DNA of 64,000 bases from Candidatus Magasanikbacteria bacterium RIFCSPHIGHO2_01_FULL_33_34 (GTDB lineage Bacteria; Patescibacteriota; Patescibacteriia; Magasanikbacterales; UBA922): NCBI GenBank assembly GCA_001782825.1, contig MFPS01000007.1:20487-84486 (forward strand). The letters run 5' to 3'. The notes beneath the pieces were generated by a model that did no database searches, had not been told where the DNA came from, and worked only from the letters and a program-made list of their open reading frames with translations. Shown here in pieces: positions 315 to 49,929 of the stretch; the first letter of the stretch is position 1, and each line of letters starts with the position of its first letter. The translations under genes were made by a program, and so were the position numbers.

Positions 315-426
315 AAATTATATAATGGATAATTTATATAATTTACACTAATCTAGAATTAAATTCAAATCCTGCCGACAGGTAAAAAAGAAATAAAAAG
401 AATAATTATTCTAAAAATTTATTTGA

Positions 427-510
427 TAATTATTATTTTTACGGATTCATTTGTTACAACAAACAAATGCCTCGGAGCCCGCAGGCGAGAATGAGTAAAA
501 ATAATAATTA
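427..510. repeat. Structured intergenic repeat, copy A: 16-bp perfect inverted repeat (427-442 / 495-510) closing a conserved GC-rich ~52-nt core
   Basis: taattattatttttac and gtaaaaataataatta are exact reverse complements. The core acggattcatttg..caaatgcctcggagccc..aggcgagaat-gagt recurs at 24162-24240. It is GC-rich in an AT-rich spacer between tspO and recQ. Confidence 0.6.
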
Positions 511-1642: not shown

Positions 1643-3067
1643 TTATTTATTTATTCTTCTTTTATTATAATACCACGCTGCCAAACCGGTTGTCAGTGGA
1701 ACAGCTAATACCAAAGCAATACTACCAACAAGCATTCGCACTATTTCTTCCATTATAATTTCACTATTCAACACCAACCATACCGGACCTTCATACAGTT
1801 TAAATAATAATAGTAATGGCAATGAAGCGCCGGTATAAGCCAATATAAGAGTATTTGTCAATGAAATTATATGCTCACGTCCAACTGATGATGCGCGAGT
1901 AAATAATTCACGAAAATTGAAAGTTTGATTGGCATTGTGGAGTTCTTCTACCACTGCAGCCTGAGCAGTGGTAATATCATCGAGCACTCCAAGCGTACCG
2001 ATAATAATACCCGCCAAGAGAATACCTTGTAGATTAAATATTTTTCCTTCAGCACTTTGCAAAAATAAAGCTTCTTCACTACCAAGACCAAATATATGCA
2101 TAATATTGGTAAAAAACATTGACATAAGTAATGCTATAAAAATGGTTATCAATGTACTTACAAAAGCAATAACAGTACGAGAACGAAATCCATGAGCAAC
2201 AAAAAGTGAAACAGTTGCAATAACAAGCGTACCTACAAATCCAACCATAAGCGCATTTTGTCCATCAATTATTCTGGGTACTATAAACCAAATAATAACC
2301 ACAAAACTAATCAAAAGGCCAATAAGAGAACGCACACCTGCCCATCTAGCCAACACCAAGACTAAAAAAATAAAAATTCCTAATAAAATCCAAAGTGAAT
2401 TAAGCCTATAAATATCATTTAAATAATATGACTCTTCACCATCAAAAACATTTTTACCTACAATAATTTTGTCCGATTTTTCCAATCTGACACTGCCGGG
2501 GCTACCTTCAGCAATCTCAAAATCCAATTCTAATTTTTTGCCTTTTTCCGGACCATTTATAATCTCTACCGCTATGTGTTGAACCAAAATTGCCCGCCCA
2601 TATTCCACAATCATATCCTCAGTTGGTTCGTCTATAACCACCGCTCGATAAAAAGTATCTGGTTGTACTGACGGCACTTCCGGATTATAAATATCAATCT
2701 GTTCATCAGCCATCACATTTTGAGAAAAAAATATGCCAAAAAATGCCAATAATACTATACTGGTAATAAAATATTTTTTGTGTGAATTATTTTTTATAAT
2801 TTTCATCTTTTCTTTCTTGGATAATTTTTTAATACTAGATTCTGCTTTGGAGGCCAGTGATCTATTTTTAAATTTTTTACAATAAACAAGTTTAACCGGT
2901 CGACGTCCCCGAGTATACTTTGCGCCCAATTCTGTTGAATTATGCTCTTTGATTCTTCTTTCCAAATCTGTAGTAATACCAGTATACAAAGTCCCATCAG
3001 AACATTTAACAATATATAAACTATACATAGTATGTATTATATCAAAAATACCAACAAAAAACATCAA
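1643..3067 (-). CDS. GIY-YIG nuclease domain (YhbQ/UPF0213-like) fused in frame to a YibE/F-family polytopic membrane protein
   Basis: The N-terminus MYSLYIVKCSDGTLYTGITTDLERRIKEHN...RPVKLVY is a classic small GIY-YIG. The C-terminal half has about 8 TM and the GVLDDITTAQAAV motif of YibE/F. There is no stop between the parts. Confidence 0.6.
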   Translation of the reverse strand: MMFFVGIFDIIHTMYSLYIVKCSDGTLYTGITTDLERRIKEHNSTELGAKYTRGRRPVKLVYCKKFKNRSLASKAESSIKKLSKKEKMKIIKNNSHKKYFITSIVLLAFFGIFFSQNVMADEQIDIYNPEVPSVQPDTFYRAVVIDEPTEDMIVEYGRAILVQHIAVEIINGPEKGKKLELDFEIAEGSPGSVRLEKSDKIIVGKNVFDGEESYYLNDIYRLNSLWILLGIFIFLVLVLARWAGVRSLIGLLISFVVIIWFIVPRIIDGQNALMVGFVGTLVIATVSLFVAHGFRSRTVIAFVSTLITIFIALLMSMFFTNIMHIFGLGSEEALFLQSAEGKIFNLQGILLAGIIIGTLGVLDDITTAQAAVVEELHNANQTFNFRELFTRASSVGREHIISLTNTLILAYTGASLPLLLLFKLYEGPVWLVLNSEIIMEEIVRMLVGSIALVLAVPLTTGLAAWYYNKRRINK

Positions 3068-8274: not shown

Positions 8275-8345
8275 GTGGGCCGAGAAGGATTTACCCCTCG
8301 GGGCATAAACTCCTGCCTGCCGGCAGGCAGGTCTCATCCTTCTCT
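8275..8345 (-). other. Partial duplicate of the tRNA-Tyr 3' end carrying the 20-bp palindrome CCTGCCTGCCGGCAGGCAGG (8312-8331)
   Basis: 8275-8291 (gtgggccgagaaggatt) is identical to 8396-8412, the T-stem/acceptor 3' end of the adjacent tRNA-Tyr. The gagaaggat / atccttctc arms form a hairpin that encloses the palindrome. Confidence 0.55.
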
Positions 8346-23562: not shown

Positions 23563-24129
23563 CTAATTAGTCGGTTTTTTTATTTTTCTAAATTCAATTA
23601 CTTTCAAAATTACAAACAAAGCAAAAATTAATGCGTATTTTACAACTTCTTGTTTTGTAAGCGCTACATGCACAAAAGCCGCAAACATCACAAAATATGC
23701 AGAATAATGAAGCTTTTTCCAATTCTTTTTCAATTTTTTGATAGCATAATTATTGGCCGTAAGAGTCAAAATTGTCATACCTAGTCCTGCCACCAATCCC
23801 CAATAAATTGGTGTCCCCAAACTTCCCCAATATTCTGGTTTGTAAAATTGATACATATAATTCATACCAGCAAAATGGAAAAAAAATAACCAAAAATTTA
23901 ATACTCCCAATTCACGCCTATACGAAACAATTTTCCAAAATATTTTTAATTTGAATATCGCAGCCAGTGGCTTAACAAAAAGAATCACACCCAACAAATA
24001 CAATGCACTCTGTCCGAGTAATTTAAAAAACTCCAAACTTTTAATTTGTGTTGCCAATATTAACAGAAACACTGGCGTTAAATAATAAATCAATAAATGA
24101 GTAATCTTTCTAAACTTTATTTGCATCAT
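23563..24129 (-). CDS. MsrQ/YedZ-like ferric-reductase-type heme-binding membrane protein
   Basis: 6 TM; RRELGVLNFWLFFFHFAGM and KKLHYSAYFVMFAAFVHV align with the conserved His-bearing helices of MsrQ. No msrP partner nearby. Confidence 0.5.
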   Translation of the reverse strand: MMQIKFRKITHLLIYYLTPVFLLILATQIKSLEFFKLLGQSALYLLGVILFVKPLAAIFKLKIFWKIVSYRRELGVLNFWLFFFHFAGMNYMYQFYKPEYWGSLGTPIYWGLVAGLGMTILTLTANNYAIKKLKKNWKKLHYSAYFVMFAAFVHVALTKQEVVKYALIFALFVILKVIEFRKIKKPTN

Positions 24130-24146
24130 ATTATAATATTAAATAT

Positions 24147-24255
24147 AATGGGAATTATTATGAACGGATTCATTTGCCCCAACAGACAAATGCCTCGGAG
24201 CCCAAGGCGAGAATCCTGCCTGCCGGCAGGCAGGGAGTGAATAATAATTCCCATT
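24147..24255. repeat. Structured intergenic repeat, copy B: 15-bp perfect inverted repeat (24147-24161 / 24241-24255) closing the same GC-rich core plus the inserted 20-bp palindrome (24215-24234)
   Basis: aatgggaattattat / ataataattcccatt are exact reverse complements. The core is shared with copy A except for CCTGCCTGCCGGCAGGCAGG inserted between gagaat and gagt. Confidence 0.6.
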
Positions 24256-24293
24256 ATATTTATATTTATATTTTAACAAAAAAATTACAAAAC

Positions 24294-24324
24294 AAAAAGA
24301 CCCTTTACTAAAAGGGTCTTTTTG
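24294..24324 (-). terminator. Rho-independent terminator of rplJL operon
   Basis: AAGACCC-tttactaaa-AGGGTCTT hairpin with a flanking T-run. Confidence 0.65.
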
Positions 24325-24333
24325 AAAACGAAT

Positions 24334-24747
24334 TTATTTCAAAACTACTTTACCACCAGCTTCTTCAATCTTCTTTTTCATTTCTTCAGCTTCTGCTTTA
24401 GCAACATTTTCTTTGACAACTTTTGGAGCGCTGTCAACCAATGTTTTAGCATCAGCCAAACCAAGACCAGTCAATTCTTTAACTACCTTGATAACCGCTA
24501 TTTTTGTTCCACCTGCTTCAGTCAACTCAACTGTAAATTCAGTTTTTTCTGCTGATTCACCACCGGCTTCACCACCACCAACAGCTGGAGCTGCCATCAT
24601 TGCCATTGGGGCTGCAGCGCTAACTCCAAATTTTTCTTCTAGAACTTTAACTAGTTCTGAAAGATCAAGTACTGACATTTTTTCAACTTCCTCAACCAAG
24701 GATTTGAACTTTGCTGGTACTTCTACATCTTTTTTTTCTTCTGACAT
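24334..24747 (-). CDS. rplL: 50S ribosomal protein L7/L12
   Basis: 137 aa; Ala-rich flexible hinge and C-terminal domain [22 protein letters not shown]. Confidence 0.9.
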
Positions 24748-29207: not shown

Positions 29208-29254
29208 ACTCAATTTTGTTTAAGATGTTTAATAAATCAATATACTCTATAACA

Positions 29255-29285
29255 AATTAAAATCCCCTAGTTTGGGGATTTTAAT
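29255..29285. terminator. Bidirectional hairpin terminator
   Basis: AAAATCCCC-tagtttg-GGGATTTT with A/T runs on both sides. Confidence 0.55.
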
Positions 29286-29381
29286 TTGTTATATTTACTT
29301 CGGAGCACCAGTCAAACCGATAAACTCAGTTGTACTGGTGCGTAGCTCCGAAGTAACGGAGACTACTTGTTGAAAGAGTAT

Positions 29382-29567
29382 CTACCTCCTCTTGTTGTTG
29401 ACCTCCTGCTTCAAGTCCTTCGGTGGCAAGCCATCGCCACCGTTCCGCTTGCCGACGAAGACACCCCGCCGACAGGCGTCCCTCTGGCTCTTGGAATGAA
29501 GCCACTTGCCACGGCAATAGGGACAAGCGTTGTCCCTCTTGACATTGTTCTGGTTGTAAGAAGCCAT
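29382..29567 (-). CDS. Small (61 aa) CPYC-containing basic protein encoded in a GC-rich islet
   Basis: Strong SD (AAAGGAGA) 7 nt before the ATG; MASYNQNNVKRDNACPYCRGKWLHSKSQRDACRRG.... Codon usage (AAG, AGG, GAC, GGC) is unlike every neighbour. A long hairpin follows at 29296-29355. Confidence 0.4.
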   Translation of the reverse strand: MASYNQNNVKRDNACPYCRGKWLHSKSQRDACRRGVFVGKRNGGDGLPPKDLKQEVNNKRR

Positions 29568-29786
29568 CTCGAATCTCCTTTCCCTTTGTCTATACAGTTA
29601 TTGCAAATACAAAAGAATAAAAAATTCTAACATATTTAAGTACTTTTGTCAATATTATTATGGGGATAATTTCACACCTATCCCATCAAAACATAATATG
29701 TCATCCCTGCGTAGGCTGGGATCCAGTAATTCATTATTTTACAATATAGACAATACACACTATTTTTCCAGTTCTAATTACAAATT

Positions 29787-43027: not shown

Positions 43028-43433
43028 AAATAAGACTTACAGTCTATTAATTATATGACTGCATAACCTACCACAAAATATAATTTTTGTCAAATATCTG
43101 TATAGTTAATATTCCTTATGTATCCCTTTTAGACATAATTGATAAATTATGTACTCAATAACATAAATTTAGTGTTCAAAAAAGGTATATATGAACACAT
43201 TATTTATCCACAGTTCACAGTTTAGCAACCGCTTGGTATAAATAAAAAAAACTGGTATAATGCCAGTAGGTTAATTCTTCATATATTTTTATGAGGGGAG
43301 CTAAAAAATCATTTTAAATTTTAAAGCCATTTTTTGATAGGCTATTTTTTGTCTCATTTCTACACTTGACAAAAAATACTAAATATGATAATGTTGCAAC
43401 CATTTAATCAAAGTACTTTTTATCATCTAATAG

Positions 43434-43506
43434 TGCCATCTAGTGGGATTGAACCACTACCTCAGGCTTAGCGGGCTCGCGTTCTATCCAGTTAAACTAA
43501 GATGAC
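43434..43506 (-). tRNA. tRNA-like gene, atypical (anticodon-loop reading GCU with C33 and no long variable arm); possibly a pseudogene or unusual tRNA
   Basis: Good acceptor (GTCATCT/AGATGGC), D-arm with GG, T-arm AGTGG-TTCAATC-CCACT. Anticodon stem CGAGC/GCCTG has one mismatch and the loop is CCGCTAA. Confidence 0.4.
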
Positions 43507-43565
43507 ACAATTAGATGATAAAGGGTATTTTAATCCTTTACAATTCCCCTTGCCTCTTGTGAGAG

Positions 43566-44639: not shown

Positions 44640-45720
44640 ATGTTGAAGTATTTTTATATTGATAGTATACTACAACAACTATGAAAAAACAACAAGCCCA
44701 AACTCCATTCCACAATCTACTAAAAAAGATTATTTCTTCACGACCGCAGAAAGCAAAGAAGCGAAGCGTAGCCTGTCGTTGCCTCGGTTGTTCCAATGCC
44801 AAACAAACTGGTCAAGATAACTCTGCAACTGCTCCTGCGAAATAGATTTGTATGTGCCTCGCAAAGAGGCTTTTACATGTTTCCAAAACCATTCTACATG
44901 GTTTATGTGTATGTCCCCCCGGGCATATTCTTTTTTTGAGTGATTAACGCTTTCTCGGTGGTATTCTTTGCTGGCGTTATCATAGCGGTTGCTCTCGTCT
45001 GTTAGAAGTCTGGTATTTTCAATTTGCACATTATCTTTCAAAAAACCATCAATCGTTTTGGCGGTTAGATTTGGTACTTTCTTGGCTCTCATGTCACCCT
45101 CACGCTCAATGGCGGCGATAACCTTAGCTTTACTTGCCATAACATCAGAATAGTTTTTATTATATTTTCCGCCATTGCCTTTACCGCCAAAAAACGCCTC
45201 GTCCATTTCCACATTGCCTCGCAGTGGGGTTGTGTCTTGCCCTATACTATCTCTGATTTGCTTTAATACCCTATAAGCGGTCTTATAGGTAACATTTAGC
45301 TGTCTTTGCATTTCTTTAGCTGATATACCTGATTTGGCGTTTGAGAATATCAAAATAGCATGAAACCATTGTTTTAGAGGTAAATGGGACTTTTCAAAAA
45401 TGCTGTCTGTCATTGGGGCGATTTGATACCTGCATTTTGAGCATTGATATTGTTTACGCCCTGTTAGCCTAACTCGTCCCTTTTTGTCTATTGTGGTCTT
45501 AAATAGAGGATTATATTCACCGCCACAAGCGCACTCCTTTGTATGTGATAGGCTGAATAGATAGTCTAGGCATGCCTCGTCAGTAGGGAAATCATGCTCT
45601 AGGTCTGTTCTGCCATAATAGTCTTGTTTTGCCATATTGTTATATTTAATTGATTATGTTGTAAGTATAACATAGACTAATTATGTTGTAAAGGGATACA
45701 TGTGTAATATTCAAGAATTA
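44640..45720 (-). mobile_element. IS1595-like insertion sequence (approximate bounds)
   Basis: A single transposase ORF with atypical composition. Terminal inverted repeats were not confidently located by eye. Confidence 0.4.
44730..45635 (-). CDS. IS1595-family (ISXO2-like) DDE transposase
   Basis: N-terminal zinc ribbon (CACGG...CSKCRY) followed by HTH and DDE region. GC and codon usage are higher than the host background. Confidence 0.7.
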   Translation of the reverse strand: MAKQDYYGRTDLEHDFPTDEACLDYLFSLSHTKECACGGEYNPLFKTTIDKKGRVRLTGRKQYQCSKCRYQIAPMTDSIFEKSHLPLKQWFHAILIFSNAKSGISAKEMQRQLNVTYKTAYRVLKQIRDSIGQDTTPLRGNVEMDEAFFGGKGNGGKYNKNYSDVMASKAKVIAAIEREGDMRAKKVPNLTAKTIDGFLKDNVQIENTRLLTDESNRYDNASKEYHRESVNHSKKEYARGDIHINHVEWFWKHVKASLRGTYKSISQEQLQSYLDQFVWHWNNRGNDRLRFASLLSAVVKK

Positions 45721-45744
45721 TGACATCTAAAATATTAATAAAAT

Positions 45745-45782
45745 AAAAACTATTGGCCAATATATTGACCAATAGTTTTTAT
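45745..45782 (-). terminator. Hairpin terminator after the epimerase gene
   Basis: aaaaactattggccaata / tattgaccaatagttttt near-perfect palindrome. Confidence 0.5.
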
Positions 45783-45787
45783 CTTTT

Positions 45788-46738
45788 TTATTCCAAACCC
45801 CAATCTCTCTTCAATTCTGCAATCCCATCTTCAAATTTTATAGTTGGTTCCCAACCAAGAAGTTCTTTGGCTTTGGTTGTATCGGCTTCACTGCGTCTTG
45901 GGTCGCCTGGTCTCTCTGGTATATTCATAGTCTCGCCACCGATTAGACGCGCCAATTCATTGACTGATTTGCATTGACCATACCCAGCATTGATCACTTC
46001 ACCTTTGCCGACTTTGTCAGATGTCATCGCCAATAAATTTGCCCTAGCCACATCAGCCACATGGGTATAATCCCGATAATACTCCCCATCCCCACAAATC
46101 GTCATTGGCTCGCCTTTGGCTCTTTGTTTGAGGAATTTACCCACTACCAATGCATAAGCTCCTTCTGGGTCAATATATGGCCCATACACATTGAAATAGC
46201 GAAGTGATACTGTCTCAAAACCATAAAGCTCACTAAACAATCGGCAATACATCTCGCCTGTATATTTATGGAGCGCATAGGGGCTGATCGGGTTACCACA
46301 CATATCTTCTCTCAATTTTTCATTATCATTGCCACCATAGACAGATGACGAAGAGCTAAACACAAATCTTTTGACACCAGCATCGCGCGCGCCTACCAAC
46401 AGAGTCAGGGTTCCATTTACATTATTATCATTGGTTTCAATCGGATGCTCAATAGAATATGGCACACGTGGTATCGCTGCCAGATGAAATACGCCATCAA
46501 TACCCACCATAGCGCGCTTCACATCCTCCATATTGCGAATATCCCCTTCTATATATTCAACACCCTTTTGGATCCTATCATCTTTTTTGCCAGCGCTAAA
46601 ATTATCCAAAACACGAACTTTATGTCCATCACTCAAAAGTTTAATAACAATATTTGTGCCAATAAATCCAGCGCCACCGGTAACCAAATATTTCTTAGCC
46701 AATAGTTCAGAGCCAATAGGTTGTGCTTGATTGTTCAT
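45788..46738 (-). CDS. NAD-dependent nucleotide-sugar 4-epimerase (GalE/UDP-glucuronate epimerase-like extended SDR)
   Basis: TGGAGFIG Rossmann motif, YxxxK catalytic pair (YALHKY). Confidence 0.75.
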   Translation of the reverse strand: MNNQAQPIGSELLAKKYLVTGGAGFIGTNIVIKLLSDGHKVRVLDNFSAGKKDDRIQKGVEYIEGDIRNMEDVKRAMVGIDGVFHLAAIPRVPYSIEHPIETNDNNVNGTLTLLVGARDAGVKRFVFSSSSSVYGGNDNEKLREDMCGNPISPYALHKYTGEMYCRLFSELYGFETVSLRYFNVYGPYIDPEGAYALVVGKFLKQRAKGEPMTICGDGEYYRDYTHVADVARANLLAMTSDKVGKGEVINAGYGQCKSVNELARLIGGETMNIPERPGDPRRSEADTTKAKELLGWEPTIKFEDGIAELKRDWGLE

Positions 46739-49769: not shown

Positions 49770-49929
49770 AAAACGAGGTCGTCCCCGCGACGACCTCAAA
49801 ACTCCACTACTTTTAAATTATTGAAATTAGTGGAGTTTTTTATTTTATACTAAAAAACAAAATAATATATAATCTATATACTAATTATAAAAAAATTGGC
49901 CAATTAATTGGCCAATTTTTTAAATCTTT

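Follow-up and report, generated by a model that had tools for sequence, protein, structure and literature searches.

The window, i.e. the whole stretch of DNA analyzed here (64 kb), belongs to Candidatus Magasanikbacteria (CPR), an uncultured groundwater bacterium from the Rifle aquifer with a genome of ~1.17 Mb (assembly GCA_001784315.1). It contains two intergenic sequences of 80-120 bases, copy A and copy B, each made up of nested hairpins. Copy A occupies the spacer between the stop codon of the TspO gene (532-987, minus) and the start of the RecQ gene (314, minus), and copy B the spacer between rplL (24334-24747, minus) and an MsrQ-like gene (23563-24129, minus). This agrees with a sequence-only reading of the same DNA, in which both copies were placed in minus-strand sense between co-directional genes. 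In that reading, copy B ended at position 24147, 18 nt from the ATG of the MsrQ-like gene; the distance is confirmed, and the full stem of copy B ends 10 nt before the same start codon. Each independent assembly that was fetched (NCBI, JGI, ENA and others) has both copies in identical form, so that they are not assembly artefacts. No within-species polymorphism was seen at either site among the assemblies compared. Elsewhere on the minus strand, positions 1643-3067 form one ORF whose product has a GIY-YIG nuclease-like domain at its N terminus and, in addition, a YibE/F membrane domain; the start of this ORF is called differently in different assemblies.

Upstream of RecQ lies a promoter-like block that is conserved in three species (Table 1). 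It is also found at about 592-623 of the relative L029 and at about 9957-9988 of the relative L027, with the remaining spacer diverged. To judge by its sequence, the block is probably a promoter or operator of RecQ. The cis-regulatory role that had been suggested for the element is not supported for copy A, since the block separates copy A from RecQ. Because of this conserved block, copy A is assigned to the 3' region of TspO and not to the leader of RecQ.

Table 1. Positions of the two hairpin elements, their parts and neighbouring features in the window.
Feature	Position	Strand	Remarks
Copy A, whole hairpin element	417-520	minus	From fold and inverted repeats
Copy A, left shared 9-bp inverted end AATTATTAT	428-436		Partner ATAATAATT at 501-509; identical in copy B
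Copy A, closing AC/GT pair	441-442/495-496		
Copy A, core, 52 nt	443-494	minus	From fold, alignment and covariance model
Copy A, helix P2	445-448/489-492		
Copy A, helix P3	449-455/462-468		
Copy A, helix P4	469-475/479-486		Bulge at 482
Copy B, whole hairpin element	24140-24262	minus	From fold and inverted repeats
Copy B, left shared 9-bp inverted end AATTATTAT	24153-24161		Partner at 24241-24249
Copy B, core	24166-24214	minus	From fold, alignment and covariance model
Copy B, helix P2	24168-24171/24211-24214		
Copy B, helix P3	24172-24179/24184-24191		
Copy B, helix P4	24192-24198/24202-24208		
20-nt perfect GC palindrome CCTGCCTGCCGGCAGGCAGG	24215-24234		Nested in copy B between GAAT and GAGT
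Second, identical CCTGCCTGCCGGCAGGCAGG	8312-8331		Within another three-way hairpin structure, 8277-8345
Shorter variant of CCTGCCTGCCGGCAGGCAGG, CCTGCCGACAGG	371-382		35 nt beyond the stem base of copy A, 45 nt from its shared end
Promoter-like block TTGAATTTAAT..GATTAGTGTAAATTAT	338-369	minus	Upstream of RecQ; conserved in three species
Intrinsic-terminator-like hairpin of rplL	24293-24324	minus	30 nt upstream of copy B, in transcript sense

Anatomy of the two copies

Reading and aligning both sites confirmed that the two copies share a real core. The shared sequence is ~52 nt long, far above chance expectation, and is laid out as ACGGATTCATTTG, a variable apex of 10 nt, CAAATGCCTCGGAGCCC, one or two variable bases (GC or A), and AGGCGAGAAT running on to GAGT. 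The 17-mer CAAATGCCTCGGAGCCC occurs exactly twice in the 64 kb, even when 3 mismatches are allowed, as against 0.01 occurrences expected from shuffles. Within the core, a 4-bp helix (ATTC/GAAT) encloses two adjacent hairpins, the first AT-rich (ATTTG.../...CAAAT) and the second GC-rich (GCCTCGG/CCG.AGGC). In copy B, P3 has 8 bp on the minus strand, 2 of which are U-G, and P4 contains one minus-strand U-G. The cores are GC-rich, as had been noted before, with 48% and 60% GC against 31.9% for the window.

The core is closed by a long stem in either copy. In copy A, positions 417-442 pair with 495-520 (P1, 26 bp), the sole imperfect position being A426.C511, an A.C in plus-strand and a G.U in minus-strand sense. 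In copy B, positions 24140-24161 pair with 24241-24262 in 22 bp that are all Watson-Crick, and weaker pairing continues outward to 24132-24270. Both stems are longer than first described, and each of the stem pairs quoted in the earlier description is an exact reverse complement. The description of the stems as copy-specific is accurate for the outer 11-13 bp and for an inner stretch of 2-4 nt, which is TTTT/AAAA in copy A and a 2x2 loop in copy B. It does not extend to the whole stem, because the 9 bp of AATTATTAT/ATAATAATT and the core-adjacent AC/GT pair are identical in A and B. The unit amounts to ~82 nt in copy A and ~97 nt in copy B including the nested insert. The two hairpins are the second and third longest inverted repeats of the window, and on either strand both copies fold much more stably than shuffled controls (z = -4.9 to -5.9).

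The extra length of copy B relative to copy A is accounted for by a precisely inserted 20-nt palindrome, CCTGCCTGCCGGCAGGCAGG, which was revealed by the covariance model of the core. This palindrome is a separate repeat family outside the core: since it is inserted in copy B and also occurs on its own at 8312-8331, copy B is a composite of two repeat families, and nesting of this kind is typical of repeat DNA. The shorter variant CCTGCCGACAGG near copy A has no counterpart at the homologous position of L029. Relative to L029, the GC hairpin at this place (CCTGTCGGCAGG, minus) and ~14 nt of T-rich sequence are insertions, and the palindrome partly reuses a pre-existing CC, as expected of templated insertion. 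The second CCTGCCTGCCGGCAGGCAGG site (8277-8345, minus) lies downstream of tRNA-Tyr and has an outer 9-bp stem, GAGAAGGAT/ATCCTTCTC, around CCTGCCTGCCGGCAGGCAGG and a CCCCGAGGGG hairpin. The final 16 nt of tRNA-Tyr (AATCCTTCTCGGCCCA) are found again at the 3' end of this segment, which may have arisen by partial duplication of the tRNA or as an att-like scar.

Several other structured sites were observed in the window. A tRNA-like gene at 43398-43543 (minus) scores 50 bits in Rfam and is called tRNA-Ser(GCU) by ARAGORN; it is, however, only 74 nt long and has no long variable arm, its residue 33 is a C, and its anticodon stem contains an A.C. It lies in a gene-poor spacer of 1.1 kb, and its acceptor stem is lengthened by ~30 bp through the pairing of a complementary leader and trailer, a design of structured core and long AT-rich stem that it shares with copies A and B. 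The 579-nt intergenic region at 29208-29786 contains several GC-rich stretches (39% GC vs. 32% for the window) and, besides a terminator-like hairpin at 29248-29293, has no Rfam match; it may hold a non-coding RNA. Finally, loop-less long palindromes around TTGGCCAAT are found at 49890-49921, at 45734-45791 and at 2553-2578 of the relative L026, and the perfect 32-bp palindrome AAAAAATTGGCCAATTAATTGGCCAATTTTTT is an example of this type. Since they are found repeatedly here and also in a relative, these palindromes may represent a shared protein-binding site or a type of bidirectional terminator.

Orthologous sites and searches for further copies

Using protein homologues as anchors, we fetched the orthologous regions of relatives, and the two sites proved empty in the nearest relatives that could be compared (L029, L027 and L021). 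The TspO-RecQ spacer has 217 nt here, compared to 113 nt in L029 (RecQ 74% identical) and 83 nt in L027 (RecQ 73% identical). L029 aligns on either side of site A, and the stretch that it lacks corresponds to one arm plus the core; the site itself is taken up by a U run preceded by a weak AU hairpin of 7 bp. Likewise, the rplL-MsrQ spacer has 204 nt here and 88 nt in L021, which contains a terminator and a short AT-rich leader only; the MsrQ-like protein is 59% identical in the relatives compared. Two further relatives, P0019 (L039) and P0003 (L040), have a different or truncated gene context and are uninformative for this comparison. No comparable hairpin elements were found in the relatives' loci, and a filter-free search of 86 kb from four relatives with the core covariance model returned 0 copies. 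When three excision models of copy A were aligned to L029, the scores were nearly equal (65, 62 and 61.5), which does not single out either arm at site A as ancestral, and gain here is not fully separable from loss in the relatives.

The covariance model (R1), derived from the two cores, was applied without filters. It gave no third copy in the remainder of the window or in the 10 kb beyond each end. The search for further copies and homologues that the sequence-only reading had proposed thus leaves 2 known copies in 64 kb plus 20 kb of extensions and none in the 86 kb of relatives. A scan of the whole window against Rfam 15, also proposed there, gives no match to either copy at the gathering score. 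At E<=10, the two copies return only generic long-hairpin matches, to miRNA precursors and a Phe leader, with scores well under the threshold. As these scans gave nothing relevant, the known types of riboswitch, leader, small RNA and small ribozyme were rejected.

Pattern searches of larger collections were carried out as well. The pattern TGCCTCGGAGCCC-N(1-4)-AGGCGAG has 6 chance matches in GTDB species-representative genomes, a weak negative given that the collection did not return the source contigs; one match, which was examined, is GC-rich (~69% GC) coding sequence, and the other five fall in records of unrelated genomes, mostly Actinomycetota or Chloroflexi. The pattern ATTCATTTG-N(4-16)-CAAATGCCTCGG has 6 chance matches in metagenome contigs, 0 of which extend into the core, and here too the source contigs were not returned. 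Neither pattern has a match in viral contigs. These exact-pattern negatives say little, because the genome and metagenome scans missed even the source contigs. A distant BLASTN search of phage records yielded short chance matches only.

Candidate element types were also compared with the sequence. An integron attC site is rejected, since neither R'' (RYYYAAC) nor R' (GTTRRRY) is present at the stem bases on either strand and there are no extrahelical bases. A CRISPR repeat, a retron, a tRNA-like fold and a hammerhead or twister core were rejected on reading the sequence. The window has no autonomous transposon with matching ends, its sole transposase gene being of the IS1595 family, with no similarity to the ends of the element. 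This gene (44730-45635, minus) encodes an ISXO2-like DDE transposase (E = 1e-30) and has no clear terminal inverted repeats around it.

Origin of the element and alternative explanations

Two origins had been offered for the complementary, copy-specific stems, namely compensatory covariation and repeated insertion of the core into pre-existing hairpins. Insertion is the better supported of the two, by the empty orthologous sites, the shared 9-bp ends and the nested insert. The argument from covariation is weakened, because most of the stem on which it was based is shared between the copies, and the copy-specific outer arms are perfectly Watson-Crick, as one-step processes would give. We therefore favour, with a probability of about 0.5, a lineage-specific, non-autonomous and non-coding palindromic repeat of a new, MITE/REP-like family with a double-hairpin core, whose arms would derive from the target or from template switching and not from selected covariation. 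That the unit has moved, that its arms arose in such a way and that it acts at the RNA level in any way is what we infer.

After the split from the known relatives, the unit would have been copied into AT-rich, terminator-proximal intergenic DNA at no fewer than two places (at least two). Its outer arms may be those of a palindromic or hairpin target, the unit having been inserted at the apex of a pre-existing hairpin. Such targets exist, because long perfect hairpins are common at gene ends in this genome. Excision that keeps one AATT restores a terminator-like ATTTATTTGGT-AATT-ACCAAATAAAT at site A, followed by UUUUU on the minus strand, and a terminator-like hairpin AAATATAATGGG-AATT-CCCATTATATTT at site B. 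The restored hairpins are similar to a terminator type frequent in this genome, with A/T at the base and G/C at the tip. The other possible source is template switching during replication, by which an existing hairpin would be extended in one step as its flank is copied in reverse complement. The terminal inverted repeats conserved between A and B are short (9 bp, AATTATTAT/ATAATAATT) and of low complexity. Beyond these ends, no direct repeat is present. The AATT at the termini might represent a 4-bp duplication, but, being self-complementary, it is indistinguishable from the inverted ends.

When read through on the minus strand, each copy would give a duplex of 22-26 bp, a plausible substrate for RNase III, capped by a three-way junction in which a GC hairpin followed by a U-rich run resembles a terminator. 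By virtue of this duplex and of the hairpin with its U-rich run, the element may affect transcript ends, as is the case for Correia elements of Neisseria (PMC2649163). Any influence on adjacent genes, be it on the formation of transcript ends, on stability or by occlusion of the region around the MsrQ-like start, would be a by-product or a later co-option.

Certain features speak against a repeat. There are two copies only in the window and its 20 kb of extensions, a clear target-site duplication is lacking, the one transposase gene of the window does not match the ends of the element, and all six differences between the A and B cores either keep the minus-strand pairing or sit in the bulge or in the P3 apex, which is what selection at the RNA level would give. 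The element might instead be a new small structured RNA or a cis-acting RNA module of the minus strand, its three-way-junction core serving as a binding site for protein or RNA. The closing helix would then need pairing only and would act as an RNase III processing stem that frees the core from the TspO and rplL/MsrQ transcripts. Standard pairs make up 97.6% of the 42 minus-strand pair cells. Genuine covariation in the core is limited to one double compensatory change (U-A to C-G) and two wobble-compatible, one-sided changes whose pairing is kept only as minus-strand G-U (A.C in plus-strand sense); the other differences are a bulge indel and an apex change. The only non-Watson-Crick position in the 26-bp stem of copy A shows the same strand preference, the minus fold of copy B is better than the plus fold by 6 kcal/mol, both copies are sense to their flanking genes, and the similar ~30-bp stem around the tRNA-like gene of the window hints at a shared maturation route. 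However, a functional RNA gene would not usually be missing from both orthologous sites and from the 86 kb of relatives, the element tolerates 20 nt of an unrelated inserted repeat, conserved unpaired nucleotides are very few, and an Rfam match is absent. The strand evidence is mixed, because the plus-strand internal loops GA/GA and GG/GA are RNA-friendly. A shuffle control on 2 sequences carries no information (the observed values are attained in 249 of 500 shuffles), and template switching at hairpins can mimic compensatory change without selection (PMC8794818). On balance, we consider such an RNA unlikely, while granting it some weight. A bolder proposal has two forms: either a mobile hairpin element that makes its own closing stem by inverted copying of the adjacent target DNA, or a new class of CPR small RNAs that RNase III excises from mRNAs via long, site-specific closing helices. 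We hold it to be improbable that one of these is correct.

Copy A lies exactly at the position expected of a TspO terminator, where L029 has a hairpin and a U run. The element could be an immobile, locally evolved terminator or insulator whose single duplication was due to recombination or template switching, in either case ectopic, among AT-rich hairpins that resembled one another. Its GC hairpin and U-rich run would end transcription of the upstream gene. In copy B, the minus-strand combination of P4 and the following AUUUGU(U/C)UGUUG (AUUUGUCUGU) was indeed classified as terminator-like. The 9-bp AT ends common to both copies resemble the hairpin arms of L029 (AATAATT/AATTATT) and could have been the microhomology. 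Yet a strong terminator of rplL is already present 30 nt upstream of copy B, P4 of copy A is interrupted by a bulge with no terminator called there, and the U-rich run is itself paired as the 5' arm of P3, so that we give this explanation little credence. It is very improbable that the copies are remnants or miniature derivatives of a single-strand DNA transposon of the IS200/IS605 kind (PATE-like), with the core hairpins recognized as left and right ends by a Y1/HUH enzyme acting in trans. The two adjacent imperfect hairpins of the 52-nt core, the lack of an evident direct target duplication and the presence of both copies on the same strand within 24 kb would all suit such an origin, and the G.T-tolerant changes on one strand are as compatible with hairpins of single-stranded DNA as they are with RNA. 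In addition, the core of copy A is preceded by TTAC, the target tetranucleotide of IS608, but copy B has GAAC at the same position. Moreover, the element has inverted ends, which are absent in that family, its core is much shorter than the described PATEs, and no TnpA, TnpB, RAYT-like or Y1/HUH gene is among the annotated genes of the window.

The genomes of CPR/Patescibacteria are small and streamlined, and their repeats and non-coding RNAs are little known. If the copies do represent a lineage-specific hairpin repeat with a nested GC palindrome, small palindromic DNA still spreads in CPR genomes and reshapes the 3' and 5' ends of transcripts, here beside rplL, the MsrQ-like gene, TspO and RecQ. 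An excised small RNA or self-made stems, if true, would be considerably more interesting. The two copies also call for caution, in that complementary arms which differ between copies mimic RNA covariation, and palindromic targets or template switching give the same pattern.

Comparison with known systems

The small self-cleaving ribozymes (hammerhead, twister, twister-sister, pistol and hatchet) resemble the element in their compact multi-helix junction, their closing helix of free sequence, an optional extra hairpin and their occurrence in bacterial intergenic DNA. These five classes are rejected here: Rfam gives no match even at E<=10, the core motifs are absent on reading, and few unpaired nucleotides are conserved. 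REP/REPIN sequences, which are mobilized by RAYT, are likewise extragenic palindromes near gene ends that form DNA or RNA hairpins and may stabilize or terminate transcripts. REPs have a conserved GTAG-type head and conserved arms. Reading the element reveals no GTAG-type head, its outer arms differ, and there is no RAYT gene among the annotated genes of the window.

The Correia repeat-enclosed elements of Neisseria (CREE/NEMIS) share more with the element, both being small, non-coding and intergenic, with a core within inverted ends, and both being present or absent at orthologous sites. Similar stem-loop MITEs of bacteria beside CREE are ERIC/IRU, RUP and BOX. CREE duplicate a TA target and are present in hundreds of copies, whereas 2 copies of the element are known here, and no sequence similarity was seen between the two. 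Their inverted repeats are long and conserved, unlike the 9-bp shared ends and the copy-specific outer 11-13 bp found here. Transcription of CREE together with the genes beside them gives long hairpins that can be bound or cut by RNase III (PMC2649163).

Template switching is known to create and extend perfect hairpin stems in a single event, in which the flank is copied in inverted orientation (PMC8794818). Hairpins formed in this way would explain arms that differ between copies and yet pair perfectly. It is a mutational process, however, and leaves the shared core at two loci unexplained.

The GC clusters of yeast mitochondria (e.g. GC42) are GC-rich hairpin units that spread and merge in AT-rich DNA, with changes concentrated in the loops (PMC4478555). 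Double-hairpin elements and repetitive hairpin-forming elements in the mitochondria of fungi and sponges are cited in the same work. GC clusters are organellar and use an AG target, whereas the element lies in a CPR chromosome, differs in copy number and is unrelated in sequence. The merging of GC clusters into composites nevertheless resembles copy B with its nested palindrome, and the core described here likewise consists of two adjacent hairpins.
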